DNA of 64,000 nucleotides from a virus (IMGVR_UViG_3300045988_164457:1-64000), one strand, 5' to 3'; counted from the stretch's first letter, positions 11,725 through 34,577 are shown. Numbers and translations: made by a program. Notes: generated from the letters alone by a model not told the origin.

Positions 11725-11745
11725 TTGATTTAGGATAAATATAAG

Positions 11746-11790: not shown

Positions 11791-11809
11791 AAGGTGATAA
11801 ATAGCTAAT

Positions 11810-12535
11810 ATGAATTTTGAAAAGATGTCTCTTGATGAACTTAAAAATATTGCAAAGGAAAAGGGCATTGTTGTTGGAAACATAGGTAAGGATAAGCTTA
11901 TCTCAAAACTTAAATCTGCTGAAGCAACAACAAGTGTGCTTGCAGAAGATGACGATTTAGTAGCAGATGTAGAAGTTGAAACAAATGAACCTGTAAAAGT
12001 AAAGTCACAGGACACTCTTTCTTCTATCATTGATGCTATTGATGAGGAAACAGACGAAGGTACTTATGAGAGAACAGCAGAGGAACTCCCCTCTGATACA
12101 GTAATTCGTGTACGTTCAATTACATATGGTACACTTATTTATAATTCTTCTATTAACAACGCTTCGTTTATCTGGAATGAGATTGGTGCGGTAAATGATA
12201 TGACTATCGGCGAGATTACAGCTATGAACAATTCTCATCCTGATTTTCTTCACAAGCCTTATGTAATTCTCCTTGATGAAAGAGCTATCAGACAGTTTAG
12301 GCTTTCATCTGTATATGAGAATGTAGCTAAGATTAGCAATCTTAAAACACTCTTTAACTCTGATATTTACACCATTGAAAAGACCATAGATGAAGCACTT
12401 ATGGTTAATATGCGTGATATGCTTATTTCTAAGATAACCACTATGTATAAGAATGGTTCTCTTAAAGACATAAATATTATCAGGCTTCTTGAACAGAAAC
12501 TCCAGTACGATATTCTTACGATAGACAAGAATTAA
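11810..12535 (+). CDS. Hypothetical structural protein with an N-terminal Rho-N/SAP-like motif
   Basis: 241 aa. N-terminus MSLDELKNIAKEKGIVVGNIGKDKLISKLK is a typical Rho_N/SAP helix-hairpin. Confidence 0.4.
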   Translation: MNFEKMSLDELKNIAKEKGIVVGNIGKDKLISKLKSAEATTSVLAEDDDLVADVEVETNEPVKVKSQDTLSSIIDAIDEETDEGTYERTAEELPSDTVIRVRSITYGTLIYNSSINNASFIWNEIGAVNDMTIGEITAMNNSHPDFLHKPYVILLDERAIRQFRLSSVYENVAKISNLKTLFNSDIYTIEKTIDEALMVNMRDMLISKITTMYKNGSLKDINIIRLLEQKLQYDILTIDKN

Positions 12536-18535: not shown

Positions 18536-20665
18536 ATGGCTAAAGATACAGACGGTCTGCTTTTAACGGCGAGTTTGGATATTGAAGGAACTTATGAAAA
18601 GATAAAGAAAGAAGATATCACAAAACTCAATGCCAAATTAGCCAATGATAATTCTGCAAGAGTGAAGATTGTCGGTGGACTTGACTTAAATAAAACACAG
18701 TCCCTTATACAATCTCAGATAGCTACTATTAGTAAGAATTTAAAACTGAATATTGGTCAGATTGATACAAGTAGTTTAAATACAGCACTTTCTAATGTTC
18801 AGAATAAAGTTATTGGTACTAATAATGGATTAACTATTAAGCCTACAGTTGATGGCAAAATTATTGAGGACACTGATGCTCTTATCAAAGCGGTTGTTGG
18901 GAAATTACAGCAGTTAAATAACATTGACCTTAATGGATTTAAGAATAATCTTAAAAATCTTGGATTTTCAGGAAAAGATGTTACAAGTGCTGCGGATGAA
19001 TTAGTTCAAGCTTTAAAGCTTACACCTGAAAATAAAAGTGTTATTATAGATAGCTATCAGAAACTTATGGATAGTATTAGAAATACTATTAAGAGTGATA
19101 GTATGGTGGCTGATAAAAACTTTGATAACAGACTTATAATGTCTATTTATCAGGCTATTAGTGAATATAAAAATCTTGGACAGACTGCTACACAGTCGGC
19201 TAAAGAAACACAAACTGTTACTAAAGCTACCACAGAAATAATTGATAAGGAAACACGGGCTGTAAAAATCCAAACAGATGCCTATGAAGACCTTGCATTA
19301 GCAAAAAAGTCAGTTATAACTGATGCTTCTGACAATCAACTTGCAAAGACTGAAACTTATTCTGATAGAGCAACTGGGAGAAGCAAAACTATAGTTTATG
19401 ATTCAGAAGATAATGAACAGGTCATTCGTTATTCTGAAAATATTAATAAAGTAGTTATAGCACAAGAAAGAGCTAACGCATCAGCAATTAAACTTGAATC
19501 TACTTATGCTAAAATAAAAAGTCGTATAGAGGATTTAAATGCTTCGAAACCTATAAAAGACGAAAGTAATAAGGAAAAATTAGCAGAGCAATATATTAAA
19601 GTAGAACAAGCTATTGATGCAGTTAAAAATGCTGATAGTACAACTTTGGTTGTAATGAAAGCAAATGCTGAAAAGGAAATCTCTACTTTGCAGGATTTGG
19701 AGCGTGCTTTCAGAAATGCTGAAAATGCGGCAGAAGAATTGAGAACTCGTGATGTCTCGACTATTAAAACTGAAAATATTCAAAAACTTGCTCAATTTGG
19801 AGCTAAAATTCAAGGCAGTAAAGTTCCTATATCAGAAATGAAAGCTGATCTTGATGAGTTAAATGCAGCAATTCAAAATATTGGAACTAATGATACCGAA
19901 GGTCTCACCAAATTTCTTAATCAATTTGACATTGCAAGAGCTAAATTTTCTGCATTAAATCAACAAATGATAACTGATAATTCAATGCAGAGACAAGCAC
20001 AACAGGCAGAACTGCTTACGCAACGTATAAAGAAACTTACTGCTGAAATCAATACATATAAAGACTCCAATTCAAAAGCAATACAAAGCAATCAGCTTAC
20101 ATCAAATGGAAAAACTTTTTCTCAAGAGATTGAGAATATGCTTTTACAGCTTTCACATTGTGCTAATAATGATGATTTCCAAAAAATTGCCGCAAATTTT
20201 AGAAACATTAAAGCAGAAGCTAAATCTTTAGGTCTTGAAGGTGGAACTATTTTTGATAAGCTTTGGGCTAACTTAAAGAAATTTTCATCTTGGATGAGTT
20301 TAACTTCCTTAGTATCTACTTTCGTAATGGATATAAGAAATGCCATTACAGAACTAAAAGAAATAGATACTATTTTAACTGAGATTTCTAAGACTTCTGA
20401 TTTAACAACTGAGGCTCTCGCTAAACTTGGCAAAACATCATTTGAATCAGCAAGCAAGTATGGCAAAAAAGCAAGTGACTATTTAACTGGTGTGCAGGAA
20501 ATGTATAGAGCTGGTTTCCAAAATGCTCCTGAAATGTCTGAACTTTCTATACTTGCACAAGCAGCTGGTGATTTAACTTCTGATGCTGCTAATGACTATC
20601 TTATAGCGACCGATGCCGCCTATGATCTGGGTGGCAGTATTGAGAAATTAAATGCAGTTTTGGAT
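18536..20665 (+). CDS. Tail tape-measure protein, exon 1
   Basis: Coiled-coil-rich 710 aa ending in the conserved TMP core (LGKTSFESASKYGKKASDYLTGVQEMYRAGF...ANDYLIATDAAYDLGGSIEKLNAVLD). The frame stops at a TAA that I place at the intron start. Confidence 0.8.
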
Positions 20666-22125
20666 TAACATAAAAGTCCTCATATATAGAAATATATATG
20701 GTTGAAGTCTGCTTTTATCGGAAAAAACGTAGAGATACATAATTCCGAGGATAAGACTATATAAAATAAGGTGGAAAGGAATACAGTGACTCAAAAATGT
20801 ATTTGTTGCCACAAAGAAAAGGATATTAAATTATTTAAAGAAAAATGCAAAACTTGTAAATTATGTAAATGGTTTAAAAAGCATCAATTAAATATTCCTG
20901 ATGACTGGAATAAAGACGATGTAAAGTATGTAATTGAACAAATACACGATTCTCATACAAGTTACTTAAATGATATAGCCAAAGATTTAGATAGACCTTT
21001 AAATGACATAATAATTTTATTAAAAGATAAATTAGAATTACATAACATAAGAAATCAAAAAGTTAGAATAAAAGTTATATGCGATAATTGTGGTAAAGAG
21101 TTTGAAATTAGTCCATATAAATTAAAAATAAACAATTTTAACTTTTGCACACACGAATGTTATAGTAAATATAGAAGTAAATATTATGTTGGAGAAAAGG
21201 CATCTGTCTATACTAAAACAAAATGTGAATGTGATAATTGTCACAAGGAAATTTTAATTCCTAAAAACAAATTAAAAGCTGTTAATGCTGAAGGAATCAG
21301 TCATAATTTTTGTAATCATAAATGTTATAGTGAATTTAGAAGTAAATATTACGTTGGGAATAAATTATATAATACAGGAATACATTTTTCAGATGAACAA
21401 CGTGAGCAATGCAGAATTAATACTGCCAAATGTTATGCCGATGGAAAAATCAAACGTAATACTAAACCTCAAATTATTATTAACTCATTGTTAAATGATA
21501 TGGATATTAAATATCAAAATGAAAAAATATACAAATACTATTCGGTAGATAATTATTTAATTGATTCTAATTTAATTATAGAAGTAATGGGAGATTATTT
21601 TCATGCCAATCCTTCAAAATACAATAATTATAACCAGTTGAATAAAATGCAACAAAAAGATGTTATTCGAGATAAGAGAAAACACACATATATAAAAAAA
21701 TATTATAATATAGAAATTTTATATTTGTGGGAATCCGATATATTGAATAATTTAAGTTTATGTAAAGCACTGATTGCTGAATATATTTCTAATAATGGGG
21801 TTTTAAAGGATTATAATTCCTTCAATTATCAATTAGACACATTGACAAATAAATTAGTAAAAAATAAAAATATAAATCCTTATTTTATATAGAATCCGTA
21901 ACGAGTAAGTTGTTATACGGTGACGTATAGCACACGCAGACCACAAATATGTATAGCATATTTCTACATTAATTGTAGCCTAACGTTAAAACGAGGGTGA
22001 TGATATACTCTGCTCTCACGCAATAATCTAACAATGAAACGTGAGAATTAAGAAGAAATTCTTAATCGCCATATAGATAATATGGTCAGTAATTTATAAT
22101 TATTATAAATGAAAGTAACAGCAGG
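20666..22125 (+). mobile_element. Group-I-like intron 1 in the TMP gene (boundaries inferred)
   Basis: The TMP core motif resumes in frame at ~22126 (SQNYITNNAAVSMQDMADATSEAA...). Exon end GGAT (20662-65) can pair with GTCC 20676-79, giving a U.G at the splice site. The intron ends in G (22125). It contains an endonuclease ORF and a 233-nt structured 3' part. Confidence 0.6.
20771..21892 (+). CDS. Intron-encoded homing endonuclease, Vsr/EDxHD-like PD-(D/E)xK with zinc-ribbon repeats
   Basis: 373 aa. Duplicated C..CGKEF....C...CYSKYRSKYYVG modules. C-terminal NLIIEVMGDYFHANP...DKRKHTYIKK..NIEILYLWE resembles Vsr-type nucleases. Confidence 0.6.
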   Translation: MERNTVTQKCICCHKEKDIKLFKEKCKTCKLCKWFKKHQLNIPDDWNKDDVKYVIEQIHDSHTSYLNDIAKDLDRPLNDIIILLKDKLELHNIRNQKVRIKVICDNCGKEFEISPYKLKINNFNFCTHECYSKYRSKYYVGEKASVYTKTKCECDNCHKEILIPKNKLKAVNAEGISHNFCNHKCYSEFRSKYYVGNKLYNTGIHFSDEQREQCRINTAKCYADGKIKRNTKPQIIINSLLNDMDIKYQNEKIYKYYSVDNYLIDSNLIIEVMGDYFHANPSKYNNYNQLNKMQQKDVIRDKRKHTYIKKYYNIEILYLWESDILNNLSLCKALIAEYISNNGVLKDYNSFNYQLDTLTNKLVKNKNINPYFI

Positions 22126-22509
22126 AGTCAAAACTACATTACAAATAATGCAGCTGTAAGTATGCAGGATATGGCTGATGCTACATCTGAAGCTGCTTCT
22201 GTTGCTGCTCAGTATGGAGTTAATATTGATGAACTGTCATCTCTTATAGCGGTAGTTGTTTCTAAAACAAGAGAGTCTGGTTCTGAAGTTGGTAATGCGT
22301 TGAAAGCCCTCTTCATCAACTTACAGGATACTACGTCTAAGCCTATTCAAGAGGCATTTGATTCTGTAAATATTTCAATGACTGAAATGGTAAATGGTTC
22401 TGAAAAACTCAAAACACCTATTGAGTTAATTAAAGAATTATCGGCTGCATTTACAAGTCTTGATGAGGGTGATACTCGAAGAGCTAATATTTTAAGTGAT
22501 ATTGGTGGT
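22126..22509 (+). CDS. Tail tape-measure protein, exon 2
   Basis: ...TNNAAVSMQDMADATSEAASVAAQYGVNIDELSSLIAVVVSKTRESGSEVGNALKALFINLQD...RRANILSDIGG is the classic TMP domain continuation. The frame is open from 22093. Confidence 0.65.
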
Positions 22510-22972
22510 AGATTTTACCACAATGTACAGAAATGTGCATAAAGAACAAATTTAAATGCAGGTAATGAGTAAGAGCCTTACACCACAATAGCGGAGAAAT
22601 CACGCTATGACGGTACGAAAGTAGAAAAAACGTAAGGATTGTATATGGTCAAAAGCCTAAGTACAGTAACAATCTCTGTTCTTGCAACGAAGTACCCTAA
22701 CGTTATACTCTGACCAAGAGTTAGTTAAGCCGAGGGTAAGCGCTCAACGACCATTCCCCGATGAGGGGTTATGACAATAAAATAAAGGTGGAAATCCCGA
22801 ATAGTCATAACATTAGAAGTACGGCTTAATCGCAAATGAAGTGAGTGAAAAACTCTTAAACGGAAAAGGTTTGACTGCTGTTGCATAAGCAACGTGGTTA
22901 AGAAATGGTCTGAACTCTTATCGAAAGATAAGGAACATGATTAGATTTTGCGAATCTAATTTAACATAATTG
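22510..22972 (+). ncRNA. ORF-less group-I-like intron 2 in the TMP gene (boundaries inferred)
   Basis: 463 nt, GC-richer and hairpin-dense, with no ORF. The exon frame runs into a stop after 10 junk codons. An in-frame TAA at 22967-69 forces the 3' splice site to 22970 or later, and the only G there is 22972. The join gives DIGG|KYHANTLAAIL, a typical TMP sequence. Confidence 0.55.
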
Positions 22973-23344
22973 AAATATCACGCTAACACATTAGCAGCGA
23001 TACTTTCTGACTTAGATAGTTATTACAAAATGCTCGATTACTATTCTAAGGGTCAAGGGTCGGCTACAGAGGAAGCACAAAAGACTGCTGAATCTTGGGA
23101 AGGTATGTGGAACAAGATGGAGAACAAATGGACGGAGTTTGTAAATGAATTTGCTAATTCCGACTTGTTTAAGTCTTTAATTGAAAGTGCAACTATATTT
23201 ATTGATACTCTTTCAGATGCTTCATCTCCACTCAATTTTATACTAACCCAAATAGCTAACATAATTGAATTGACATCAAAATTAACTGACAAAATAGGTT
23301 TAATTCCTACTATACTTGGTGGATTAACCCTTAAAAACGTAGGT
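22973..23344 (+). CDS. Tail tape-measure protein, exon 3 (3' boundary 23340-23344 uncertain)
   Basis: KYHANTLAAILSDLDSYYKMLDYYSKGQGSATEEAQKTAESWEGMWNKMENKWTEFVNEF...IPTILGGLTLKNVG. The ORF then reads 24 junk-like codons into structured RNA before its stop at 23416. Confidence 0.6.
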
Positions 23345-23760
23345 GAACTAAGTCTTAAATACGCCCGTTCTTATGCTACCACAGACATAAAGCATAGGGA
23401 ATGTAACACGTTTTAAAATAAGGTTGTCAAACTGCTGGAAAATGCTAAAGCTGTGTGACTACTCATAACAAGGCATTATGAGAGTGAGGAAACTCGGAAA
23501 CAACAACACAGATAGACTATGCTGAAACAAAAGCTTGATTTTATAATAGAATCAAGTGCTACGGTCTGCATACTATATAATAGTATAACAATGTATAATC
23601 AGCAACCAAGCCCTGTCGTGAGACACGGAAGGCTCAACGAGTAGATGACAACTGCCTTGTGGTAAGGTAAAGGTGTACTCTAACCTATGGATAACTCCCA
23701 TAGTAGTTCCAAAGCAGATTATCCCTGCTTAGTTTTGACACTATGATAGATAGTGTAGGG
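23345..23760 (+). ncRNA. Structured RNA, 5' domain of the third TMP intervening sequence (intron-core-like)
   Basis: GC-richer with many short hairpins: CTCATAA/TTATGAG, CTTGATT/AATCAAG, CTATGG/CCATAG, AAGCAG/CTGCTT, CACTAT/ATAGTG. Shares GCTCAACGA (23632-40) ... ATGACAA with intron 2 (22742-50). ACGTTTT 23408-14 is complementary to exon end AAAACGT 23334-40. Confidence 0.4.
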
Positions 23761-23888
23761 ATAAATCTATCAAAAATTACATATTTGTAAATATATCAAA
23801 AGATTTGTTAAAGTTTACTTTTTATTTACAATTTGTGCAAATTTACACATAACTTATAACTTTACGCTTTTGCTATGTCATTTTCAAC

Positions 23889-23926
23889 AATTCAACAGAC
23901 TTTCAACGTTGAAAGATTGTTGAATT
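23889..23926. promoter_or_regulatory. 38-bp imperfect palindrome (candidate operator)
   Basis: AATTCAACAGACTTTCAAC|GTTGAAAGATTGTTGAATT. The central 16 bp CTTTCAACGTTGAAAG are perfect. There are 2 mismatches in the outer arms. TTCAAC occurs 4 times locally. Confidence 0.5.
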
Positions 23927-23997
23927 ATCTTATTGACAAATACAAAAGTTCGTCAAAATGTTAAAATATTAAACGTTTACCTTTAGATGTTTTGTAT

Positions 23998-24026
23998 TTG
24001 ACACATATTTTAAATTTAATTATAAT
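23998..24026 (+). promoter_or_regulatory. Consensus sigma-A promoter (TTGACA-17-TATAAT)
   Basis: TTGACA 23998-24003, 17-nt spacer, TATAAT 24021-26. Confidence 0.6.
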
Positions 24027-24032
24027 ATATAT

Positions 24033-24180
24033 AGAGAGTATAACAATTTAGCTCTCGTCTCAATTTCATTTAGAAAGGAGAAATATTAATTATGAGGATT
24101 GATAGAATAAAAGAAATAGATAGATAAGCGAATATTGATTCTTATTGCCACTTTCTATTTTAGAATGTGGCAATTTTTAT
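24033..24180 (+). ncRNA. Short transcript (~150 nt) carrying an 11-codon ORF (24092-24127, MRIDRIKEIDR) and its own terminator
   Basis: Predicted from the promoter at 23998-24026, RBS GAAAGGAG plus ATG 24092, and terminator ATTGCCAC/GTGGCAAT plus T5 at 24144-24180. Confidence 0.35.
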
Positions 24181-24185
24181 AAAAT

Positions 24186-24216
24186 AAACCACTTATGTTA
24201 TGCAAATAAGTGGTTT
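24186..24216 (-). terminator. Terminator of the leftward membrane-protein gene
   Basis: AAACCACTTAT / ATAAGTGGTTT stem. T-rich on the minus strand after the stem. Confidence 0.5.
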
Positions 24217-24226
24217 AATCATTATA

Positions 24227-25047
24227 TTATAAAATTTCTTTCATTTTGATGTTTGTTTGTTGCTTATTATTTCTTAATTCCAAACAAAATTCTTCAATGG
24301 TAGGATATGACTTGCCTTTTCCTGCTGCATTTCTAAAGGACTGTAGAGCGTCTTTCCCAGAGTCAGGATCGTAAAGGAAATAAAATTGCTCTTCAATAAT
24401 ATCTCTATCTACTATTCCCTGCTTCCACGAAATTAAAAGAGCTTCTAAGAAATTTAAATATTGTATTATATACCATCTTATTTCGTTGCATTGTACAACA
24501 TCAATAGTATACATACGTGAACTGCTATCATTAAAATTTTTATCATAAACATGGCAGTCATGTGCCATATTTTCAGGTTTAATAGTGGTTTCAAAACATT
24601 TTTTACACGAAGATTTTTATAGCTTGAACAAATGGGGCATAATTCTTTTTTAGTTTCAAAATTAACTTCAAATGGCTGTTTATTATATAGGTTTGCACAC
24701 TGTTCGTGATTAAAACCTTCAACTATACGAACCGCATATGTAGTCTCCCATCGTAAAGATTCAGACCATTTAATCATGTAATCAACTGTCTTTTCTCTAC
24801 GCTTTTCATCGTGTCTTGCTCTTGAGTCGTTTTTAGCAACTACAAGTTGTATTACCAGTAAAACTAATGACAGAGAACCGTAAGCAGAAATCATTAAAGA
24901 GATTATCTCATAATCTCTCATATAGGTTTCTGGTATTTTAATACACAATAACACACATACAACAATAACTGCAACAGTAAGAATACCCAATGTTACTGCT
25001 ATGGCGGTATTCCAATTAAATTCTCGTTTGTTATTTTCTGTTTTCAT
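24227..25047 (-). CDS. Two-TM membrane protein with a DUF4760-like C domain, split over two frames at an A6 run (frameshift, pseudogene or -1 recoding)
   Basis: ORF 24478-25047 (N-terminal TM helices, ...CPICSSYKNLRVK) and ORF 24227-24568 (...CFETTIKPENMAHDCHVYD...YLNFLEALLISWKQGIVDRDIIEEQF) overlap. Frame B is open from 24616. Slippery A_AAA_AAT lies at 24604-24598. Confidence 0.5.
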
Positions 25048-25213
25048 AATAATCCTCCTTATTCAGTCATAGTGTATTGTTATACTATAATTATACAATC
25101 AGTCTCTAACAAAATCTATACGCTTAATTTCTAAATTTTATATTGTATTATTGTATATATTAACACAAAGAGACATTATATGCCACCGTAAAGTTTGTAT
25201 TTTTCCTATACTC

Positions 25214-25242
25214 TTGACATTTTGCTCTGAATATGTTAATAT
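25214..25242 (+). promoter_or_regulatory. Sigma-A-type promoter for the 25267 gene
   Basis: TTGACA 25214-19, 17-nt spacer, TAATAT 25237-42 preceded by TGT. Confidence 0.5.
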
Positions 25243-25266
25243 TATCTCAAATAACTACATTTTGAG

Positions 25267-26037
25267 GTGGACTATATGAAAAGACAGATTGTTTCGTTTA
25301 TGATGGCAATTTCTTTAATTGTGACATCAACATCTCCTGTTATAGCTCACAGTGGTAGAACCGATAGCAATGGTGGGCACAGAGATAATAAGAACAAGAG
25401 CGGGCTTGGATATTATCATTATCATTGTGGAGGACATCCTGCTCATCTACACGAAAATGGTGTTTGTCCGTATAAAAGCGGTTCAAGTTCTAACAATTCA
25501 AATTCAAGTAAATCAAACACATCATACAAGAATGAGAATATATCGTCATCCAAATCTAAGGCTGAGTGGATCGGAGACAAATATTGGACTGGCGATAGCT
25601 TTGCAAGAGGCTGGCAGAAAATAGACGGTTACACTTATTACTTTGATGATTACGGCGATAAAATGATAGGTTGGGCAAATGACGAAGAAGATAATACCTA
25701 TTATTTTGATGTTAAAGGCAGAATGAGTGTCGGTTGGAAAGAAATAGGTAATCATACATATTTCTTTAGTACAAATGGCTATATGCGTACAGGTTTACGT
25801 AAAACAGAAGGTAAAACATACTATTTTAACAAAGATGGTGTGATGGTTACTGGAAAAGTTAGATTTGGAGATAATATTCGCTATTTTGGTTCAGATGGGG
25901 CTATGAAAAAGGGCTGGGGCAAGATTGGCAATGATACATATTACTTCAAAAACAAAGACGGATATATGGCTACTGGAAAACTTAAAATTGATGATAAGGT
26001 TTATGAATTTGGAGATGATGGTAAGCTTATAATGTAG
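25267..26037 (+). CDS. Secreted YHYH-domain protein with clostridial-type cell-wall-binding (CW_binding_1-like) repeats
   Basis: Signal peptide MKRQIVSFMMAISLIVTSTSPVIA. HSGRTDSNGGHRDNKNKSGLGYYHYHCGGHPAHLH motif. At least 6 repeats of the GW.KI.G.TYYF...G.M.TG type. Confidence 0.7.
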   Translation: MDYMKRQIVSFMMAISLIVTSTSPVIAHSGRTDSNGGHRDNKNKSGLGYYHYHCGGHPAHLHENGVCPYKSGSSSNNSNSSKSNTSYKNENISSSKSKAEWIGDKYWTGDSFARGWQKIDGYTYYFDDYGDKMIGWANDEEDNTYYFDVKGRMSVGWKEIGNHTYFFSTNGYMRTGLRKTEGKTYYFNKDGVMVTGKVRFGDNIRYFGSDGAMKKGWGKIGNDTYYFKNKDGYMATGKLKIDDKVYEFGDDGKLIM

Positions 26038-26066
26038 TTAATTATAAAAAGCCTCTTTACTTTAGG

Positions 26067-26104
26067 AAGTCACCCATCTGAACAAGGTGGGTGACTTTGT
26101 TTAT
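26067..26104 (+). terminator. Terminator after the CWB-repeat gene
   Basis: AAGTCACCC / GGGTGACTT stem plus a T-rich tail. Confidence 0.6.
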
Positions 26105-26124
26105 GTTATCAATATAAAAAAGCC

Positions 26125-26160
26125 AAAGACCTACTCTTAAATTAGAGCAGGTCTTTCTTT
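26125..26160. terminator. Bidirectional hairpin terminator (serves the leftward BRO gene)
   Basis: AAAGACCTACTCT / AGAGCAGGTCTTT with A-run upstream and T-run downstream. Confidence 0.55.
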
Positions 26161-26273
26161 ATATCCTTTACAACTTAGTATCTTATACCATATTCACCGT
26201 TATGTATTTGAGTAAGTATTGGCACTGTCACAGGCTGAATACCAAGTTTAACAAGCGACACATCGGATTTCCA

Positions 26274-27083
26274 CTAATTTATAGCTGAAAGCTTCTGCAC
26301 AAGTATCTTACGGTAATTTTCAAGATTACGTGGAGAGTCATTGCTTTCAATAAGGTATGTAAGTGCTTCAATGCCTTTGATTTCACGGCGTACATATTCC
26401 ATTACGGAACGTACTCCTGCCTGAACAACATATCCCCTTTTCTCTATCATAAAGCTTGGGGTCTTACTGTTGTCAAGTTCATAATATGAAACAATGTGTG
26501 ATAAACCCATATTATAGATTACAAACAAAGATTTCTTGCATTTGAATAACTGAGGATTTTCTTTGTTGTATTCTTTGAGTTCATCACCAGTCAGTAAAGA
26601 ATAATCTCTATCTGGCATTAAGGCTGATTTGATATGATTGTATAGAGTAACTGAATTTATACCATAAATATTTGAGATATCGGAAGCAGTGAGAACAGGT
26701 CTGCCGTGAAATGTTTTCTCTATGTAGGCGTATGGAAGTGAGGGTGCTTTGGGTACAGTATAATTACCTGTCTTTCTGATTGATGGCAAGACTTCGTTAG
26801 TAACCCATTTGCGGAATATTCTGCACTTGTCTGTCCGAGCTTCAAGCATAAAATCATAGAGCTGAGACTCTGTTAAATACTGTTTCACACCGTGTGAAAC
26901 CAACGTAATTTCGGCATTTTCAGCAGTTTTAAGTATTCTTTCTTTGTAGGGATAAACATTTCCTTTAGCTTTGGCTACATATCCTAAAGCCTTACCAGTT
27001 GAGTAAATCTCGAATAAGGGTTCGCCATTTTCATTTTGAATGACCTCTACATCATTGCCTTCAAAATTCATAATCTCTTGCAT
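26274..27083 (-). CDS. BRO-N family antirepressor-like protein
   Basis: N-terminus FEGNDVEVIQNENGEPLFEIYSTGKALGY...LTESQLYDFMLEARTDKCRIFRKWVTNEVLPSIRKTGNY fits the Bro-N pattern. RBS AAGGAG. Confidence 0.75.
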   Translation of the reverse strand: MQEIMNFEGNDVEVIQNENGEPLFEIYSTGKALGYVAKAKGNVYPYKERILKTAENAEITLVSHGVKQYLTESQLYDFMLEARTDKCRIFRKWVTNEVLPSIRKTGNYTVPKAPSLPYAYIEKTFHGRPVLTASDISNIYGINSVTLYNHIKSALMPDRDYSLLTGDELKEYNKENPQLFKCKKSLFVIYNMGLSHIVSYYELDNSKTPSFMIEKRGYVVQAGVRSVMEYVRREIKGIEALTYLIESNDSPRNLENYRKILVQKLSAIN

Positions 27084-27108
27084 AAATAAAACTCCTTATC
27101 AATTTGAC

Positions 27109-27138
27109 TTGACAAGAACTCTCTATCTATGGTACAAT
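27109..27138 (+). promoter_or_regulatory. Antisense sigma-A promoter in the RHH-BRO intercistronic region (extended -10)
   Basis: TTGACA 27109-14, 18-nt spacer, TGgTACAAT ending at 27138. Confidence 0.55.
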
Positions 27139-27144
27139 GTATTT

Positions 27145-27217
27145 GATAGAAAAATCTGTCAGATATGTAACGGTAATGTATTACTTTCCACGGTGCAACA
27201 TTGCCGTTATTTATTTT
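27145..27217 (+). ncRNA. Predicted ~70-nt antisense RNA (sar-like)
   Basis: Starts about 7 nt after the -10. Ends at hairpin AACGGTAATG 27169-78 / CATTGCCGTT 27199-208 plus ATTTATTTT. Antisense to the RHH 3' end and the RHH-BRO spacer. Confidence 0.4.
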
Positions 27218-27380
27218 CTCGGAGAACAAGTTGTATACCTTTTCTCACAACATCTGTACGTGTAACATTGTTGTCTTTGCAATATTTGATTAATTTATCA
27301 TTTGTGTCTTTATCAATTCTTGCTTTGATCTCAATGATTAAAGGCTTTTCAACTTGTGGTCTACCTATTTTGGGTGACAT
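27207..27380 (-). CDS. Ribbon-helix-helix (Arc/CopG-like) regulator, 57 aa
   Basis: ATG 27380 after AGGTGA. MSPKIGRPQVEKPLIIEIKARIDKDTNDKLIKYCKDNNVTRTDVVRKGIQLVL shows the beta-strand plus two-helix RHH pattern. Confidence 0.6.
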   Translation of the reverse strand: MSPKIGRPQVEKPLIIEIKARIDKDTNDKLIKYCKDNNVTRTDVVRKGIQLVLRENK

Positions 27381-27396
27381 TTTTTCACCTACTTTC

Positions 27397-27439
27397 TGTG
27401 CCACAATTATATTATAGTTTATGTGCCACAAAAAGTCAA
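27397..27439 (-). promoter_or_regulatory. Leftward promoter of the RHH-BRO operon with two 10-bp direct-repeat operators
   Basis: On the minus strand: TTGACT (27439-34), 17-nt spacer, TATAAT (27416-11). TTGTGGCACA occurs twice (plus-strand 27422-31 inside the spacer and 27397-406 over the predicted start site). Confidence 0.55.
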
Positions 27440-27508
27440 TAGTCACTTTTATTTTTGGTAAAATGCACAAAAGAATAACGTTTATTTATGATAAATTAAA
27501 ATTACCCC

Positions 27509-27536
27509 TTGACAAAAAAAAATAAAGTGGTATAAT
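27509..27536 (+). promoter_or_regulatory. Rightward consensus promoter (TTGACA-16-TGgTATAAT), divergent from the RHH promoter
   Basis: TTGACA 27509-14, TATAAT 27531-36 with TG at -15/-14. Confidence 0.6.
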
Positions 27537-27542
27537 AATAAT

Positions 27543-27655
27543 TGAAAAATATCATATTACATCCTTATGTTGAATTTGATTAAGGCTTCCTAATTCTATT
27601 TAATCAAGTACAACAGGAAGCACCCACAGGTACTGGCATATCTGTGGGTGCTTTT
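27543..27655 (+). ncRNA. Predicted ~110-nt non-coding RNA
   Basis: No RBS-preceded ORF. Internal hairpin GCTTCCT/AGGAAGC (~27586-27620). Terminator AAGCACCCACAG 27618-29 / CTGTGGGTGCTT 27642-53 plus TTTT. Confidence 0.4.
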
Positions 27656-27714
27656 GCGTACTATAACGGTTTCCTTTTTTCTGCTCGTACATACTGATAT
27701 TATAGCAAGGAAAA

Positions 27715-27936
27715 TTACAACTGAGACTGAGTTATTGGTATCGGTATATTTTGCTGAATAGCTTCAGTCTTAATTGTAGGTAAAACAATGTTTGTGAGCA
27801 TTGTTAATGTGATTGTCAAAAGCTGTAATATCCTTTTGAGTTTTGGGCGTTTAATCCCATATAATCCCCAAATGTAGATTACAGTGCATATAAGTAACGA
27901 TATAAAGTTTAAAATTAACGTCCAGAAAAATACCAT
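27715..27936 (-). CDS. Small two-TM membrane protein (73 aa)
   Basis: MVFFWTLILNFISLLICTVIYIWGLYGIKRPKLKRILQLLTITLTMLTNIVLPTI... RBS AAAGGA at 8 nt. Convergent with the 27543-27655 RNA. Confidence 0.45.
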   Translation of the reverse strand: MVFFWTLILNFISLLICTVIYIWGLYGIKRPKLKRILQLLTITLTMLTNIVLPTIKTEAIQQNIPIPITQSQL

Positions 27937-28125
27937 AGACTCATCCTTTCGATTTTGAGCGGTGCAGAAAAGAAAGCCTATATCAGCAATTAAATTATAC
28001 TATATTTTCTTCCAAAATAACTACCTGCAAATTTAACAAATTATTTTCAATCATTTATGCACATTTACCACTTAAATTATAGTTTTATCAACGTTGCTAT
28101 ATTGTAGATTTAACAATACAAATTC

Positions 28126-28154
28126 TTGACAATTTTAAATGTATAAGGTATAAT
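28126..28154 (+). promoter_or_regulatory. Perfect consensus sigma-A promoter
   Basis: TTGACA 28126-31, 17-nt spacer, TATAAT 28149-54. Confidence 0.65.
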
Positions 28155-28185
28155 TATGTTATTAATTATATAGGAGATGTTGATA

Positions 28186-28395
28186 ATGGAATTTAACAAA
28201 AATAAAACTTATAACGGCAACGGCATAAATGCAGATGATGTATATGATTATGTGACAGAAGGTGTAGGAAATATTCAACATAATAGAGAAAATTTTGCAT
28301 ATGTTTCTAATAATGTAGAAGAAAGACCAACCCCCAAAACACCCATAAATAACAATAGCAACAACAATAACAACAATAATAATAGTAATGAATAG
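28186..28395 (+). CDS. Small protein with a poly-Asn tail
   Basis: ATG 28186, 9 nt after AGGAG. Ends ...PINNNSNNNNNNNNSNE. Confidence 0.4.
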   Translation: MEFNKNKTYNGNGINADDVYDYVTEGVGNIQHNRENFAYVSNNVEERPTPKTPINNNSNNNNNNNNSNE

Positions 28396-28410
28396 AAGGA
28401 GGAATAATTA

Positions 28411-29007
28411 TTGTCAGACATTTTTAATATTTTACCCGATATTGTAATTTATATTGTATTAGGTTATATCTGTCTCCATATGTATAGAATTACACGAATT
28501 GTTAAGAAATCAGATGATTTTGAACATATTCTGACAGAATCAATAGTTGTAGGCTTTATTATAAAAAATGTCATATCTCTAATACCTTTTACGTTTGGAG
28601 AATACATTGATACCATCGGAATGATAATATCAAGCGCTGCAATAGGTTTTGGGGTAGCCAAAATTCTTGAAACCCCTATAGCAGATAAAGTTATTAATAT
28701 TCTAAAAATCAAGCATACAAAGTTTAAGTATATGTGGCAAAACATTGATGATCCTAATTATGCCATATTTATTGATGCAACTAACCCCGAAACTCACATT
28801 AGATATTTTGGGCAGGTTGTGATGTATGAAGAATTTGAACGATTTCCAATAATTCAAATTTGCAAATATATGGCTTGGAAAGATAATGACTTATTATTTA
28901 ACTATTCAGATGACCCAACTCAAACAGTATTAATAGATACGTCCAAATACACAGAGATAGATATCATTTATCAAAAGGATAGTAGGGTAATCAAGCGCTG
29001 GAAATAA
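28411..29007 (+). CDS. Membrane protein (3 TM N-terminal domain plus soluble C domain), Abi/exclusion-like architecture
   Basis: TTG start after AAGGAGGA. 198 aa. TM helices in residues ~8-95, then a beta-rich C domain (AIFIDATNPETHIRYFGQVVMYEEFERFPIIQI...). Confidence 0.45.
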   Translation: MSDIFNILPDIVIYIVLGYICLHMYRITRIVKKSDDFEHILTESIVVGFIIKNVISLIPFTFGEYIDTIGMIISSAAIGFGVAKILETPIADKVINILKIKHTKFKYMWQNIDDPNYAIFIDATNPETHIRYFGQVVMYEEFERFPIIQICKYMAWKDNDLLFNYSDDPTQTVLIDTSKYTEIDIIYQKDSRVIKRWK

Positions 29008-29010
29008 TAT

Positions 29011-29044
29011 AAAAGAACCTTTGAATTTCTTCAAAGGTTCTTTT
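29011..29044 (+). terminator. Terminator
   Basis: AAAAGAACCTTTGAA / TTCAAAGGTTCTTTT perfect 15-bp stem. Confidence 0.7.
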
Positions 29045-29161
29045 ATATTTATAATTATTAAAACTTGCTACCGCAATTATTACACTACGTCAATACCATA
29101 TTACACATTTCGCTATAGCATACAAAACATTTAATAAACACTAATACAATACAAAATATTC

Positions 29162-29190
29162 TTGACAAATATTGCTATTAGTGGTATTAT
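29162..29190 (+). promoter_or_regulatory. Sigma-A promoter (TTGACA-17-TGgTATTAT)
   Basis: TTGACA 29162-67, TATTAT 29185-90 with upstream TG. Confidence 0.55.
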
Positions 29191-29263
29191 ATAGATAAGT
29201 AGATATTAGATACTTAATATGGTGCAAAAGTAAAAACGTAAATGATTATGTAAGGAGTATATT

Positions 29264-29695
29264 ATGTCTTTTTATAAGTATTGCCCTAAATGTGGAGATA
29301 TAACTTGTGTCCAAGAAGTGGAAAATTGCAATTTTTGTAACGAAGCGTACATAGTAACTGACTATGAATATAGTTTAAATGACCTTTTTGGCGACATAAA
29401 TAAACCAAAAGAAATCTTTGAGAAATATGTAAAGCCCAATCCACTATTCGATGAAGAACTCTACAACAAAAGGATGGGAGTAGAAAAAGCTCTGCAAGAG
29501 GCTACATCAAACCGACTGCGTATGGAAAAACAACAAGCTCAAAGAGCTAATGTCCCTAAATGTCCAACCTGTGGTTCAACAAATGTAGAAAAAATATCTA
29601 CAACTCAGAAAGCTTTTGGTTTTGCTTTGGTTGGAGTGTTTAGTAGTAATCTCGGTAAAACTATGCACTGCAAGAATTGCGGATATAAGTGGTAA
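29264..29695 (+). CDS. Double zinc-ribbon protein with a C-terminal hydrophobic segment
   Basis: CPKCG...CNFC at the N-terminus. CPTCGS...CKNCGYKW at the C-terminus flanking FGFALVGVFSS. RBS AAGGAG. Confidence 0.5.
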   Translation: MSFYKYCPKCGDITCVQEVENCNFCNEAYIVTDYEYSLNDLFGDINKPKEIFEKYVKPNPLFDEELYNKRMGVEKALQEATSNRLRMEKQQAQRANVPKCPTCGSTNVEKISTTQKAFGFALVGVFSSNLGKTMHCKNCGYKW

Positions 29696-29703
29696 TTATG
29701 GCA

Positions 29704-29740
29704 AAAGACCTGTTCTTAATTAACAGGTCTTTATTTGTGT
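29704..29740 (+). terminator. Terminator at the right end of the island
   Basis: AAAGACCTGTT / AACAGGTCTTT plus a T-rich tail. Confidence 0.65.
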
Positions 29741-29834
29741 TTAAATCTTTTTAATAGTATATTGATTTTGCTAAATTATATCGTAGCATGTTTGAAAGTC
29801 AACATTTTCATAATAATTCAAAACGTTAATATGG

Positions 29835-32800
29835 AAATATGGTATTTAAGACTGTTGACGGACACATAACTAATATATTTAATAAGGTCGATAAACTTAA
29901 TACGGGATTTGAACTTACAAATGATGAAATACAAAAAATTGTTAATCGATTTAATGACTTTAATTCTAAACAATCCTTTGGTCAGGAATATACAGATTTC
30001 ATTGCCGAAATGACCAATAGAAACTTTAATGTTTCCCAGATGTTCTCTGATCTTGCAAAACAAGGCGCTTCTGCAAGGGCAAGCATTGAGGGTTTCTATG
30101 CTGCAATTCTTGATGGTAATACTAAAGGTTTTGCCAATGTAAAATCAACTATAGCGTTGTTCAATCAGGCACAACAGTCTGGAGCAGATAACGCAAAGGC
30201 ATTTGCAAAAGCAGTTGGTCAGAGTAATACTCAGCTCGGTAATTATTTGGGCGGTCTTAACGGAGCTAAGGCATCTCTTGTTGGTTATGGTACGCAATTA
30301 GCGATTACAACAGCAAAAACTATAGGTCTTCGAGCTGTCACTATGGCTCTTAATGCTGCTTTGTCTTTTGGTGTTTTAACTGTTGTTAGTTTATTTGTTA
30401 GTAAGCTTGATGAATGGATTGTAACTCAAAAAGAGCTTACAGAACAAACAAAAGAATCTGCCGACAAGGCAAAAGAACAAGCGGCTGCGTTTTCTGATTT
30501 AAAAACTCAGTATCTGGCAATTATTGATAGTGCCGATGATGAGGCTACAAAAACAGAAAAACTTAATGAGTGGAAAAACACACTTATTGAAACATATGGC
30601 TTTGAAAAGAAAGCTCTTGAAAGTCTTAATACTGAACGTGAAAAAGGTATTGAATTGCTTGAACAAGAGTCTAAAGCTGGTATAAAATCAACTTATCAAA
30701 ATTATCTTGTTGAAAATAAAAATGAAATAGAAAAAGCCAAGAAAAAATTAGGACAGCTTGGTGAATTTAATATTTTTACAGGCTCACAGATTGATGTTGA
30801 TGAAAATGCCGATTTTGGCGTCGCCAAAAACCTTCAAAAGTATTTTGATGTAAAATCAGGGGATTATTTTGGTGAGTTAAATTATAAATTAAGTATCAAT
30901 TTTGACGATGCGGTTGATGAACTTGATCAATTAACCAAAATTCAAGATGAAATAAATAATATTGAATCGGAAAGAAAAGTAATTGGCAAGGGTTTAACAG
31001 AAGATGAAAAGTTAATTCGTCAATATGTTGAGAGTGAAATAAGTAGAATTGAAAAATTAAATGATAAATATTTATCTACCTATCAATCATCCGCTGAAGC
31101 TGGTGCTTGGGTAAAATTTAATACCGATGCCAATCAAAAAGCCTTAGAAGCCGCAGGAAAGGATGGCTATTCAAGTTGGAGGAATGCTTTTTTAAAGCAA
31201 GCTGAATCCCCTGCCGAACAGCGAGAAATGGAAAAAATTCTTGCTGAGAATGTTCCTGACTTAGAAACTGCTTATAAAACTCTTGAAACTCGAAGAAATA
31301 ATCTTGAACTTGCTAAATCAAAATTCGGCATAAGTGATTTGCTTAATTCAGAAAGTGCGAGAATGAAGGCTGTTTTCGTAAACTCTCTTGATGATACAGA
31401 CCTCGATATTCTTGTAAACAAAAGCGAAGACCCATTTAAAAATGGTATCGAAGGTGCTAAAAAGGCTATTGAAGATTTTAAGGCTGACCCTAAAAACCAA
31501 ATCAATGTTGAAACTGACACTTCTTCGCTTGAAGAAGCAACTAAAAAACTTGAAGATTATTCTAAGTCTATAAGTGATTACACAAAAGCTCAAAAAACTA
31601 TTACAGACGCATATAATGAACAGACTAAATATGGACAACTCGCAGCAGACACAATTCAATCTTTGATTGATGCTGGATACGCTGAAGCTCTTGTTGTAAA
31701 TGATGAAACTGGTGCTGTAACATTAAATACATCTGCTGTAGAAATGTTAAATAATCAAAAGAAAGTATCTCTTTTACTTGATGCTCAAAAGCAAAAATCC
31801 GAATTGACAAAACAGCTTGATGATGAAAAATCGAAAATTGATTCACTCACAAGCAGTCTTATGACTAATAATGAAGAAAAGAAGAAGTCATATGTTGCGG
31901 ATTTGCTTGCTGCTCAAGCGAATAAAGAACAGATTGAATCACAGATTGCAATGTATGATGCTTTAATGTCTTCTTTAGATGCTCCTGACTTTGGAACTGA
32001 AAATAAGGAAGACCCTGCTACTGTAAAACAATTCAAGAAAGATAATAAAGAAAAGAAACATCTTCTTGAAATGGAACAGATTACAGAGCAAGAGTATTAT
32101 GATTGGCTTGACAGTAAAAGCCATCGTGTTTATGGTAATCTTGCTGATTATCAAGATGAGCTTTGGAAGCACGAAGAAGAGGTTTATAACTGGAGACAGG
32201 AACAAGAACAAAAGCTCTTCGACAAGAAAATTGACAACCTTGAAAAGCTGGCTGACAAGGCACTTGATAATTACAAGGACGGAGACGGTAACGAGCTTAC
32301 AGTTACAGCAAGTTTTGATTATGCACGTGAACAGATAAACAAGGCTATTACCGAAACTCAGGCAAGAATTGACGGTATCAGAAACGGTACTATAAGTGGT
32401 GACACTGACGATATAGAGGCACTTATAGATGACCTTGACAGTCTTTATGACAAGTTTATTGATATCAATAAGAAGGAAATCGAATCAGAAAAGGATTATA
32501 TCAGTGAACTCAAAGACGATTATTCTGATATGATGGATGAGCGTATTGATAAGGTTGATGAGCTTTCTGATAAGATTGAAAAGAGCTATGACAAGCAAAT
32601 AGATGCTATTGACAAACAAATAGATGCTCTTGAAAAAGTCAAGGACACTGAGGATAGAATCAAGAAAATCAAGGACGCTCAACTTGCTGTTAAGGAAAAG
32701 GAGCAAGCTCTTGACGAAGCTAAACGTGAAGATGCTAAGAACAATTACGTTTACTTTGACGGAACTGGAATGTCTGTACAGACTTCTGATGAAAATCAGA

Positions 32801-33804
32801 AAAAGGCACAGGAGGAGCTTGATGAAAGTAAGAAAGACCTTGAAGAAGCTTATCGTGATGAACAAATCAGTGTACTTAAAGACCAAAAGGATATCCTTGA
32901 GGAACAGAAAGACACTGCTAAAGATTATTACGATAACGTAAAGGACAATCTTGAAAAACAGAAAACACAGGGTGAAAAGACCTATGAAGCTGTTGAGAAG
33001 ATTTATGAGCAGCTTGGCGGTGACAAGAAACAGACTTCTTCCAACGCCGAACTTGTTAAAAAGCTTTCTAAGTCAGGTGATATATCTAAGGCAATGTCTG
33101 AATTGTCTGATACTGAACGTCAGAAAGCTATTGATACAGGCGTTGTCAAGATACAGCCTAACGGTGATTATACTTTTGATTATTCTGCCTTTGAAAAGTA
33201 TTCAAGTACGGTAGATGACAATACACTTGCTACACAGGATTTAACTTCTATTCTTAAAGACATAGTTACTCAGACTAATACTGATAATAAGGATAAGACT
33301 GATAATTCTATGGTTGCAGGTGGCTTTAATCTTGTTGCTGACCCTAAGACAGGCAAACTTACTAAGAAACAAGTTATGGTCAATGGTGAAGTTGTTGAGG
33401 GATTAGGTCACAAGGTCTATGCTACTTCTAAGGAAGAGTGGCAAGGACATAATAACAGTGAAAGGACAAGCAAGGGAAGCTTTGCTGGTTATGATACGTT
33501 TATTGACTTTATGAGGGCTGTTAGTGCTGGAAAGGTGGATATTAGTCCTCTTACTAATGCGTTCAATAGTGACTATAATCCTATTGTTGACAGAATGAAT
33601 AAGTCTGTGAGTGATACCATTAACAATGTTTCTAACAGCAATGTTAATAATAACATCAATAACAAACCTGTTGTAAATCTTACTGTAAATGTTGAAGGCA
33701 GTGCTGATAAAAAGACTGTCGAAGCATTTAGGAATGTGGTCACTAAAGAAATTGGCACTGCTTTTGATGAATTTGGAAAAGCAGTACGTAATGCTAAAGT
33801 TTAA
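29835..33804 (+). CDS. Tail tape-measure protein, exon 4 / C-terminal part (5' boundary 29835-29842 uncertain)
   Basis: The frame is open only from 29830 (TAA at 27-29). There is no convincing RBS before ATG 29839. About 1320 aa with a hydrophobic TMP-type segment (LAITTAKTIGLRAVTMALNAALSFGVLTVVSLFV) and long coiled coils. Confidence 0.65.
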
Positions 33805-33890: not shown

Positions 33891-34319
33891 TTAAAGTGAA
33901 TAAGTTCTTATTGCAGAAACAATACTATCCGTGTACCAATTTACAGTTGTAGTTGCAACGGAGCTAACTTCTGTTGGCATATTTACATTTCCACGAGGTT
34001 TGATTGCAATGATAGGTTTTCCCATTGCTACTGCGCAATCTAATTCATACTGCATCCATTCACGATTATTATAGTACATTCCCGATATAACTAAAACACA
34101 ATTTACAGGTCTGATTTTTCTTAAAATAGCATCTTTAATTTGTGTTTTATTGGTAACGGAAGTACCATCTAAATTTATAAGAGGATTGTCTTTTGGAGCT
34201 GAATAATTATAATACTTAAAATTAGGAGCTTCTTCCAATAAATCATTTAAGTGAATGTAATCATCGCCGTATTTCCAAGCATGACTAATAAATAAATGGT
34301 ATGGCTTTAACTCTGGCAT
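33891..34319 (-). CDS. TIR-like domain protein (DUF1863 / ThsB-like)
   Basis: ATG 34319 (GAAAGG upstream). MPELKPYHLFISHAWKYGDDY...QIKDAILRKIRPVNCVLVISGMYYNNREWMQYELDCAVAMGKPIIAIKP matches the TIR-like pattern (FISH..., S.W...E). The longer track ORF to 34457 is an artefactual extension. Confidence 0.65.
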   Translation of the reverse strand: MPELKPYHLFISHAWKYGDDYIHLNDLLEEAPNFKYYNYSAPKDNPLINLDGTSVTNKTQIKDAILRKIRPVNCVLVISGMYYNNREWMQYELDCAVAMGKPIIAIKPRGNVNMPTEVSSVATTTVNWYTDSIVSAIRTYSL

Positions 34320-34376
34320 ATAAATTACAACCTTTCTAAAATAAAAATTTAAACAATTCCATAAGGAGGAATTATT

Positions 34377-34577
34377 TTGAATACTAATGTAAAAAAATAT
34401 CGTAAGAAGCCTGTTGTAATTGAGGCATATCAAACTGACAAGGAAATTGTTATTCACACATTAGAGGGCGATATGATAGCATCTGTTGGGGATTATATTA
34501 TCACGGGTGTGAATGGAGAACAATACCCTTGCAAACCTGATATCTTTGAAAAGACTTACGAATCTGTAGAAGATTGA
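34377..34577 (+). CDS. PGDYG-like small phage protein (opposite strand, between the SLATT and TIR genes)
   Basis: TTG start 8 nt after [21 protein letters not shown]...[27 protein letters not shown] resembles the PGDYG family motif. Confidence 0.5.

Follow-up and report, generated by a model that had tools for sequence, protein, structure and literature searches.

A phage tape-measure gene in four pieces: support for three group I-type introns and a predicted gene island inside the third

How can a phage make one tape-measure protein (TMP) from a gene that lies in four pieces, the last of them about 6.5 kb beyond the third? The question is raised by the window analyzed here, the viral stretch IMGVR_UViG_3300045988_164457:1-64000, which is 64,000 nucleotides (nt) long and carries the TMP gene between positions 18536 and 33804. 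The window is a phage structural module with a G+C content of about 32%, in which an HNH endonuclease gene and the genes for the large terminase subunit, the portal and tail proteins lie around the TMP gene. The last residues of the first piece of this gene are ...SIEKLNAVLD; TAA comes next, at 20666, and the frame picks up 1460 nt further on at 22126 (SQNYITNN...). The second piece ends ...ILSDIGG at 22509, runs on for 10 read-through codons, and is back in frame at 22973 (KYHANT...) after 463 nt. The third closes with ...LTLKNVG at 23344, beyond which 24 codons are read through, and the last 1320 amino acids (aa) start some 6.5 kb downstream. Joining 18536-20665, 22126-22509, 22973-23344 and 29842-33804 gives a single open frame that codes for a TMP of 2282 aa. 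Splicing is supported at all three sites, because intron-free alleles exist for the first and second, uninterrupted homologues exist for the third, and a group I ribozyme core lies directly after exon 3. The sequence thus supports a single tape-measure gene that is broken up by three introns of the group I type. For the third site, we consider it probable (about 0.8) that a very large group I intron, hereafter intron 3, is spliced out of one tail-operon transcript.

The product has a PhageMin_Tail core and great length, and terminase, portal and tail genes flank the gene, as is typical of a TMP. Pieces 1 to 3 are collinear on a single TMP profile, phrog_4211, piece 2 being the C-terminal half of Pfam PhageMin_Tail, and exon 4 is collinear with uninterrupted TMPs over their C-terminal two-thirds; such uninterrupted homologues range from 1731 to 2264 aa. 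Two uninterrupted TMPs, from MT835723 and YomI of SPbeta, each align in one tblastn segment across junctions 1 and 2; in the tblastn search of GenBank phages the alignment ended before junction 3. Against the same phages, megablast of the region gave no match and distant blastn nothing beyond one intron 2-like element. An earlier note on this DNA had described a TMP core cut into pieces that resume in frame, and every boundary it listed was reproduced in the layout of open reading frames (ORFs) and in the raw sequence. Its estimate of about 2280 aa for the joined product was borne out, and its proposal that a single TMP gene has three interruptions and that its pieces are put together again in frame at the RNA level is supported at all three sites. 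The last piece was also correctly said to lack a ribosome-binding site and to have a frame that opens 9 nt before the first ATG: the frame runs from 29830, the ATG lies at 29839, and no Shine-Dalgarno sequence precedes it. Of its junction coordinates, 20665/22126 and 22509/22973 stand, and ~23340/~29835 has to be replaced by 23344/29842 (KNVG/VFKT). The junction 23340/29835 (KNV/NMVFK) was rejected since its second ATGG is unique to the window and homologues read KN[VI]G-VF.

The evidence for intron 3 begins at the end of exon 3. Downstream of exon 3, close relatives share ~440 nt that are about 95% conserved, beyond which their sequences part abruptly, and similarity to a contig with a different intron at this site (L012) ends exactly at 23344. 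The core is visible to Rfam only when about 500 nt are scanned alone; in such a scan, RF00028 (Intron_gpI) matched 23362-23703 over model positions 1-253 with 35.7 bits (E 1.5e-7), and the consensus P4, P6, P7, P3' and P8 segments were recognizable. The core of a distant relative (L113) gave a full-length match of 38.4 bits (E 2.8e-8). The guide sequence at 23354-23369 consists of the P10 strand CUUAAAUAC (23354-62) and the P1 strand GCC-CGUU (23363-69). The latter is paired with AACG(UA)GGU at the end of the exon, so that U23344 faces G23363, a pair that is invariant in 12/12 sequences. P7 is formed by 23639-43 with 23676-80.

The intron's 3' end would be specified by two further helices. Exon 4 opens with the 9 nt GUAUUUAAG, to which the P10 strand CUUAAAUAC is exactly complementary, giving 9 perfect base pairs (bp), and the 10-mer GGTATTTAAG, which is the preceding G plus the P10 target, occurs once in the window, at 29841. 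After P9 and P9.1, a 7-bp closing helix, P9.2, is formed by GUUUUGA (23732-38) with UCAAAAC (29818-24), 17 nt before G29841; this pairing places the several kilobases between the two strands, the cargo island, in the terminal loop of a P9.2-like helix. Every structural group I test applied to intron 3, except the Rfam curated score, agreed with this assignment. Our results indicate that intron 3 probably works like a group I intron, and self-splicing is predicted.

The junction derived from RNA pairing can be compared with the proteins of uninterrupted genes. In two such homologues, P0062 (2258 aa) and P0053 (2264 aa), the spliced product of exons 3 and 4 aligned in a single BLASTP segment without a gap at the junction, LKNVG/VFKTVDG aligning with FKNIGVFTAIDG and FKNIGVFGIINN (FKNIGVF against KNVG/VF). 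A BLASTP comparison of the spliced junction with the TMP of another contig (L001) did not cross junction 3. In a full HMMER search with exon 4 residues 1-320, many ORFs started (M)VFK exactly at this point, and the same region was internal in P0053 (residues 1040-1340) and P0062 (residues 977-1266). Two independent lines thus agree on 23344/29842, because the junction derived from RNA pairing is also the one that restores the homologue protein. The protein thus restored is, as far as these alignments indicate, the ancestral TMP. Two further contigs, L109 and L111, also have uninterrupted TMPs; in that of L109, the N-terminal part resembles exons 1-3 and the C-terminal ~1140 aa resemble exon 4.

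Intron 3 is not confined to the window. Pattern scans of viral and metagenome collections returned more than 20 contigs with its core, of which 13, including the window, hold the complete intron, with lengths from 1704 to 6497 nt. The pattern TTCAAAAC..GGTATTTAAG was unspecific over a whole collection, where most of its 56 matches were due to chance, and no relatives came from a scan of genome contigs in which the spliced protein of exons 3 and 4 was the query. Exons 3 and 4 are apart in every close relative, and the length and genes of the spacer between them vary. The terminal G is invariant in 13/13 complete copies, and so is CAAAAC followed by 9-20 nt and G (UCAAAAC in all except L083), whereas the sequence upstream of this tail is unrelated among copies. 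Intron 3 is fixed in the phage lineage.

Covariation was examined in an alignment of 12 distinct copies that covered the core and the 3' tail with 103 proposed pairs. Paired cells made up 98.0%, against 34-41% when partners were slid, and 20 pairs had changed on both sides, against 1-4 with slid partners; none of 500 shuffles reached the observed values. The P9.2 helix was paired in 98.8% of cells, while P4 and P7 were invariant and therefore uninformative for covariation. Because MAFFT had shifted L083 by one column in P8, in P9.1 and in part of P3, the counts understate the pairing; these helices were checked by hand. In L083, whose exon 3 protein is only 38% identical to that of the window, every core helix still forms: P2, P3, P8, P9.1 and P10 differ in sequence and all still pair. 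Its P10 is compensated, the guide CCGAAUAU pairing with its own exon 4 start AUAUUCGG located 1.7 kb downstream. L113, from a separate sequencing run, has the same layout with an exon 4 N-terminus 35% identical to that of the window, and its P10 is likewise compensated, with AAACAC pairing with GUGUUU where the window has AAAUAC with GUAUUU. In addition, the read-through peptide after exon 3 varies freely where P2 covaries, which points to selection on the RNA rather than on a protein.

In contig L012 the intron 3 site is occupied, to the nucleotide, by an unrelated intron whose guide GCCAAC pairs with the contig's own exon end GUUGGU; a scan for further introns of this type returned the same contig only. 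The intervening sequence of L012 (10373-10830) ends with a GATAGA...ATCTATC hairpin, as in the window type, and the contig ends before exon 4.

Introns 1 and 2 are both preceded by U and end in G. For intron 1, P1 was read by hand as GGAU with GUCC, with a U-G pair at the splice site; together with the U/G boundary, intron-free alleles and a candidate homing-endonuclease ORF in a loop, this fits a group I intron. A Pfam scan of this ORF (20771-21892) gave no match. The ORF is present in some relatives and deleted in others: L005 has the same intron 1 minus nt 256-1215, which leaves 499 nt and removes the endonuclease ORF. In L024, L070, L075 and L083, exons 1-3 are fully contiguous, exon 1 running directly into exon 2. 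L005 lacks intron 2 and reads gatattggtgga/aaatatcacgct (ggtgga/aaatat; ggtgga/aaatatcacgct), exactly the predicted junction. Rfam Intron_gpI matched intron 2 in part, in the P7'/P9 region only, with 27.4 bits (E 4.7e-5). Taken together, introns 1 and 2 appear to be ordinary mobile phage introns that are gained and lost among close relatives. They are further examples of a known intron kind, and the three-intron mosaic is itself ordinary.

Several side observations touch these two introns. A second copy of ACCACAAU, a short sequence near the start of intron 2, lies at ~22580, inside the same intron. An element 77% identical to intron 2 occupies a different TMP position in the 176 kb gut phage MT835469.1 (L002), whose TMP gene (6614-11882) is apparently interrupted at least two times; the element is followed by a 379-aa endonuclease-like ORF and, further downstream, by a 476-aa ORF of the same kind. 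A different intron, located 17 nt downstream of the intron 1 site, was seen in L004 (2873-4200) and also in L007, L008 and L012, so that two intron types occur at neighboring positions in one conserved TMP motif. The ORF of this L004-type intron is 320 aa long and has CapR and treble-clef zinc-finger matches.

The loop of intron 3 holds genes that vary from copy to copy. The cargo spans 1.3-6 kb among copies, differs in gene content, and includes many antisense genes with their own promoters. In the window, G+C is lower in parts of the island, both strands carry genes, and three promoters match the sigma-70-type consensus perfectly (23998, 27509 and 28126). The island of L083 has two antisense ORFs behind consensus promoters, one of them weakly ToxN/AbiQ-like, below threshold. 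A PADLOC scan of the island gave no match. The only gene common to all window-type islands codes for a zinc-ribbon protein and abuts the 3' splice site. In the window, this gene and its palindromic terminator (29264-29736) are inverted, the gene being antisense in every relative examined.

The lower G+C, the genes on both strands and the separate promoters could also be expected if the 6.5 kb had recently been inserted into the DNA, as a mobile element or through chimeric assembly, and had inactivated the TMP of a defective prophage, and a remnant of this region indeed lies beside the tmRNA gene in a bacterial chromosome. However, more than 20 contigs, independent and drawn from different samples, have this architecture, always at the same nucleotide; most are phage contigs of 75-147 kb. 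The island edges are RNA helices rather than repeats. In addition, the Pfam, PHROG and PADLOC scans found no transposase, integrase or TnpB among the island ORFs. On these grounds the island was rejected as an insertion in a dead prophage or an assembly artefact, and we regard such an origin as scarcely credible.

Several points nevertheless weigh against group I splicing at these sites. The scores of the intron 3 core in the window and in L113 lie below the Rfam gathering score of 50, and an Rfam scan of the whole window at gathering thresholds and one of 9.7 kb (20400-30100) with E up to 10 returned nothing. The bulk of the covariation comes from a few diverged sequences, namely L083, L113 and, for P2, the L009 group. 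Intron_gpI did not match the 499-nt ORF-less form of intron 1 in L005 with E up to 10, and a short Rfam scan of the L012-type intron gave no match. In P1, the splice-site U has G as a near-universal partner; the best P1 that can be drawn for intron 2 (AUUG(G)UGGU with ACCACAAU, window 22498-22540) puts A opposite this U. An in-frame ATG or TTG stands directly before exon 4 in most relatives, which is compatible with a separate C-terminal protein. Terminator-like hairpins also lie on the plus strand of the island at 26066, 29006 and 29704, the last of them about 110 nt before the splice site. The Rfam check proposed in the earlier note thus succeeded in part, giving a clear but sub-threshold full-length match for intron 3, with the gathering threshold reached by none of the three introns. 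The comparison with TMPs lacking the inserts, which it had also proposed, was clearer: intron-free alleles fit junctions 1 and 2 exactly, and uninterrupted homologues fit junction 3.

The start codons raise the question of whether the third site is spliced at all. The TMP might be made as two proteins, one from exons 1-3 plus the read-through tail and one from exon 4 with its own ATG or TTG, the ribozyme being a relic or only cleaving RNA. In 12/13 complete copies, exon 4 follows directly on an in-frame ATG or TTG triplet, and dozens of database clusters are called as separate ORFs starting (M)VFK, a pattern that is partly an artefact because gene callers report only ORFs with a start codon. 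In L109, moreover, a zinc-ribbon gene lies just upstream of a genuine TMP start codon. However, the triplet in L011 is TAG, an in-frame stop, and the next in-frame start comes only at codon 81. No Shine-Dalgarno sequence was found upstream of exon 4 in the window or in any relative, though most window genes have one. The ribozyme and its pairing with exon 4 were kept by compensating changes while the exon 3 protein fell to 38% identity; a relic would have decayed. Two separate proteins therefore seem improbable to us.

The terminator-like hairpins bear on the question of whether one RNA or two are involved. Because of them, splicing within a single transcript would need read-through or antitermination. 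In trans-splicing, a 5' RNA with exons 1-3 and the ribozyme would end in the island, and a second RNA with the 3' tail and exon 4 would be joined to it through P9.2 (7 bp) and P10 (9 bp), which would remove the difficulty posed by the terminators. Both the window and L009 have such hairpins downstream of the core and ahead of the 3' splice site. The arrangement of the intron would also suit two RNAs, since the whole catalytic core is in the 5' part and only ~24 nt of intron precede exon 4, held by two helices. In group I introns P10 usually has 3-6 bp, so that 9 bp is longer than expected. On the other hand, no consistent sense promoter was found between the last terminator and the splice site, where relatives have the divergent antisense start of the zinc-ribbon gene. 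The T-runs of the sense-strand terminator-like sites are interrupted, and L083 has no convincing sense-strand terminator. Finally, an insertion in a closed peripheral loop is the usual layout for splicing within one transcript. We consider trans-splicing unlikely.

Splicing of intron 3 within one transcript would proceed as follows. Late tail-operon transcription would read through the island, and the core (P1-P9.1) would fold directly after exon 3. P1 (GGU/GCC plus AACG/CGUU, with U23344 opposite G) would set the 5' splice site, while P9.2 and the 9-bp P10 would carry G29841 and exon 4 to the active site. Two transesterifications would then join ...KNVG to VFKT... and yield the mRNA for the 2282-aa TMP. 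Exchangeable accessory genes may have accumulated in the loop closed by the 7-bp P9.2. Antisense cargo with its own sigma-70-type promoters could be expressed independently, for example from a prophage, with the essential late gene left intact, and intron 3 might thus serve as a safe site for accessory genes. We infer splicing in vivo, read-through of the sense terminator-like sites and the role of the cargo from these features. A more far-reaching proposal, which we hold tentatively and at somewhat less than even odds, is that intron 3 represents a group I intron that has been domesticated and now gives accessory genes expressed in lysogeny a protected docking site within an essential late gene. 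Full-length TMP would then be made only if late transcription overrides the island terminators or two RNAs trans-splice, and ribozyme splicing would tie tail assembly to the lytic program.

Self-splicing group I introns are well known in phages, for example in td, nrdB and nrdD (sunY) of T4 and in orf142 of Twort, which has three. In these phages an endonuclease ORF can lie in a peripheral loop, and several introns per gene are possible. To our knowledge, the T4 and Twort introns are ~0.25-1.1 kb long with at most one ORF, and we know of no phage introns outside ~0.25-1.5 kb or with more than one endonuclease gene. The closest parallel to the mosaic is found in Bacillus cereus-group prophages, whose TMP genes carry TMP-IVS1, IVS2 and IVS3a/b (Tourasse and Kolsto, 2008; PMC2504315). 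In these prophages, several in-frame group I introns occur per TMP gene, some with endonuclease ORFs, with a stop codon at or soon after the 5' splice site and a patchy distribution among related phages, all as observed here. The count of three interruptions in one TMP is therefore not new; the earlier note was not aware of three of such different size. On the other hand, we found no similarity between the two sets at the DNA level, and none of those introns seems to be described there as carrying a multi-gene island (PMC2504315).

Two other systems resemble intron 3 in its layout. The group I ribozyme itself takes 200-500 nt, and the largest bacterial chimeras, IStrons, in which it is fused to an IS200/IS605 or IS607 element, measure 482-2582 nt (Tourasse et al., 2014; PMC4227781). 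Like intron 3, IStrons have a 5' ribozyme, a payload after the P9 subdomains in a terminal stem-loop and a 3' splice site beyond (PMC4227781). However, the IStron payload is a transposon with a transposase or TnpB, whereas intron 3 carries unrelated accessory genes, most of them antisense, that amount to 1.3-6 kb, a payload up to three times as long; IStrons are dispersed and multi-copy, whereas intron 3 sits at one fixed site in one gene. The island was therefore rejected as an IStron, although the payload position fits, since no transposase, TnpA or TnpB match was found in Pfam, PHROGs or PADLOC. The ND5-717 group I intron of hexacoral and corallimorpharian mitochondria, 18-19 kb long, is likewise lineage-fixed, carries many functional genes in a peripheral loop and greatly exceeds its ribozyme in length (Chi et al., 2019; PMC6545197), which makes it an analogue from another domain of life. 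It differs in that it belongs to an organelle and carries essential host genes in P8, while intron 3 lies in a phage structural gene and carries variable accessory cargo in P9.2.

A full-text literature search for phage group I introns that carry accessory cargo or are trans-spliced returned no case, most subscription journals lying outside its coverage. If our reading holds, intron 3 would be, as far as found, the largest group I intron in a bacterial virus and the only one with multi-gene cargo; trans-splicing, if it occurs, would be without a natural precedent in phages. The novelty lies in the cargo-carrying giant third intron and not in the count of three introns. It would represent a conserved lineage of 1.7-6.5 kb introns whose loop serves as an exchangeable gene island, so that accessory or defense-type phage genes are apparently housed in an essential structural gene at no cost to it, because the RNA removes the cargo. 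For annotation, automatic pipelines call this TMP as at least four genes, and dozens of database clusters start with (M)VFK, where exon 4 begins; both tail-length inference and the calling of gene families break. The long P10 and the closing helix could also provide a natural system in which to study how a group I ribozyme finds a 3' splice site that is kilobases away and whether terminators within an intron gate splicing. The features of the locus are listed in Table 1.

Table 1. Features of the tape-measure locus in window coordinates; intron and ORF assignments are predictions.
Feature	Coordinates	Strand	Description
TMP exon 1	18536..20665	+	710 codons; ORF; phrog_4211 positions 65-707; last base U
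Intron 1	20666..22125	+	1460 nt, probably group I; starts TAA, ends G
HNH-type homing-endonuclease candidate ORF in intron 1	20771..21892	+	373 aa; phrog_1271 E 1.8e-8
TMP exon 2	22126..22509	+	128 codons; Pfam PhageMin_Tail PF10145 E 9e-18, profile 94-201; phrog_4211 729-841
Intron 2	22510..22972	+	463 nt, no ORF, probably group I
TMP exon 3	22973..23344	+	124 codons, ends ...LTLKNVG with U23344; phrog_4211 840-927
Intron 3	23345..29841	+	6497 nt; 5' group I ribozyme, cargo island, distant 3' splice site after G29841
Intron 3 ribozyme core, P1 to P9.2 5' strand	23345..23738	+	Rfam RF00028 match; covariation
Conserved hairpin GATAGAT...ATCTATC, left island edge	23745..23771	+	all window-type copies and L012
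Cargo island	23772..29817	both	Pfam and PHROG scans
Two membrane/unknown ORFs	24227-25047	-	island
Choline-binding-repeat protein	25267-26037	+	island
Bro-N anti-repressor-like protein	26274-27083	-	island
Small ORFs	27715-29007		island
Zinc-ribbon protein	29264-29695	+	island
Intron 3 3' tail	29818..29841	+	P9.2 3' strand UCAAAAC (29818-24), A+T-rich spacer, terminal G (29841)
TMP exon 4	29842..33804	+	1320 codons plus stop; starts GUAUUUAAG, the P10 target

Exon 4 also occurs in other settings. The uninterrupted TMPs of L109 (6714-12370) and L111 (6568-12850) are mosaics. The TMP of L109 shares its last ~500 aa almost unchanged with exon 4 of the window, while the N-terminal ~590 aa form a different, uninterrupted PhageMin_Tail-type region, and a divergent zinc-ribbon gene lies just upstream of the TMP start. 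The zinc-ribbon gene and the exon 4 block seem to move as a unit. Many database ORFs with homology to the beginning of exon 4 (P0001, P0004, P0005, P0026, P0036 and P0038) end after 197-323 aa and continue into unrelated sequence. Some of these short ORFs belong to the chromosomal remnant described below, and others may represent further interruptions of exon 4. The protein P0050 was traced to a 3.3 kb contig only.

The relatives of the window are contigs of 75-147 kb, and human-gut samples are common among them. A 1.2 kb remnant of the region was found between the tmRNA gene and cotJABC in a bacterial chromosome (L096, 9490-10639; also L097, L098 and L027). Its parts are the zinc-ribbon gene in antisense orientation, the tail with the 3' splice site, and codons 1-212 of exon 4. 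Around the tmRNA gene, this chromosome is nearly identical to Huintestinicola butyrica, whose reference genome (NZ_JAOQKB010000002) has 614 nt of other sequence where L096 holds the remnant. These observations suggest a prophage remnant at a tmRNA integration site that points to the host, and the host group is likely Huintestinicola butyrica or a relative.

Two other regions of the window deserve mention. A 436-aa HNH/homing-endonuclease-like ORF (2826-4136) immediately precedes two ORFs that overlap, 4149-5234 and 5212-6906. Of the large-terminase profile (phrog_2), the latter ORF matches the C-terminal part only, at positions 264-599. This terminase gene, too, is possibly interrupted or frameshifted. 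Directly downstream of the TMP gene and antisense to it, 33891-34457 on the minus strand codes for a ThsB-like TIR-domain protein (Pfam PF08937, E 1.3e-12). This gene is kept in relatives and is possibly an accessory defense or counter-defense gene.

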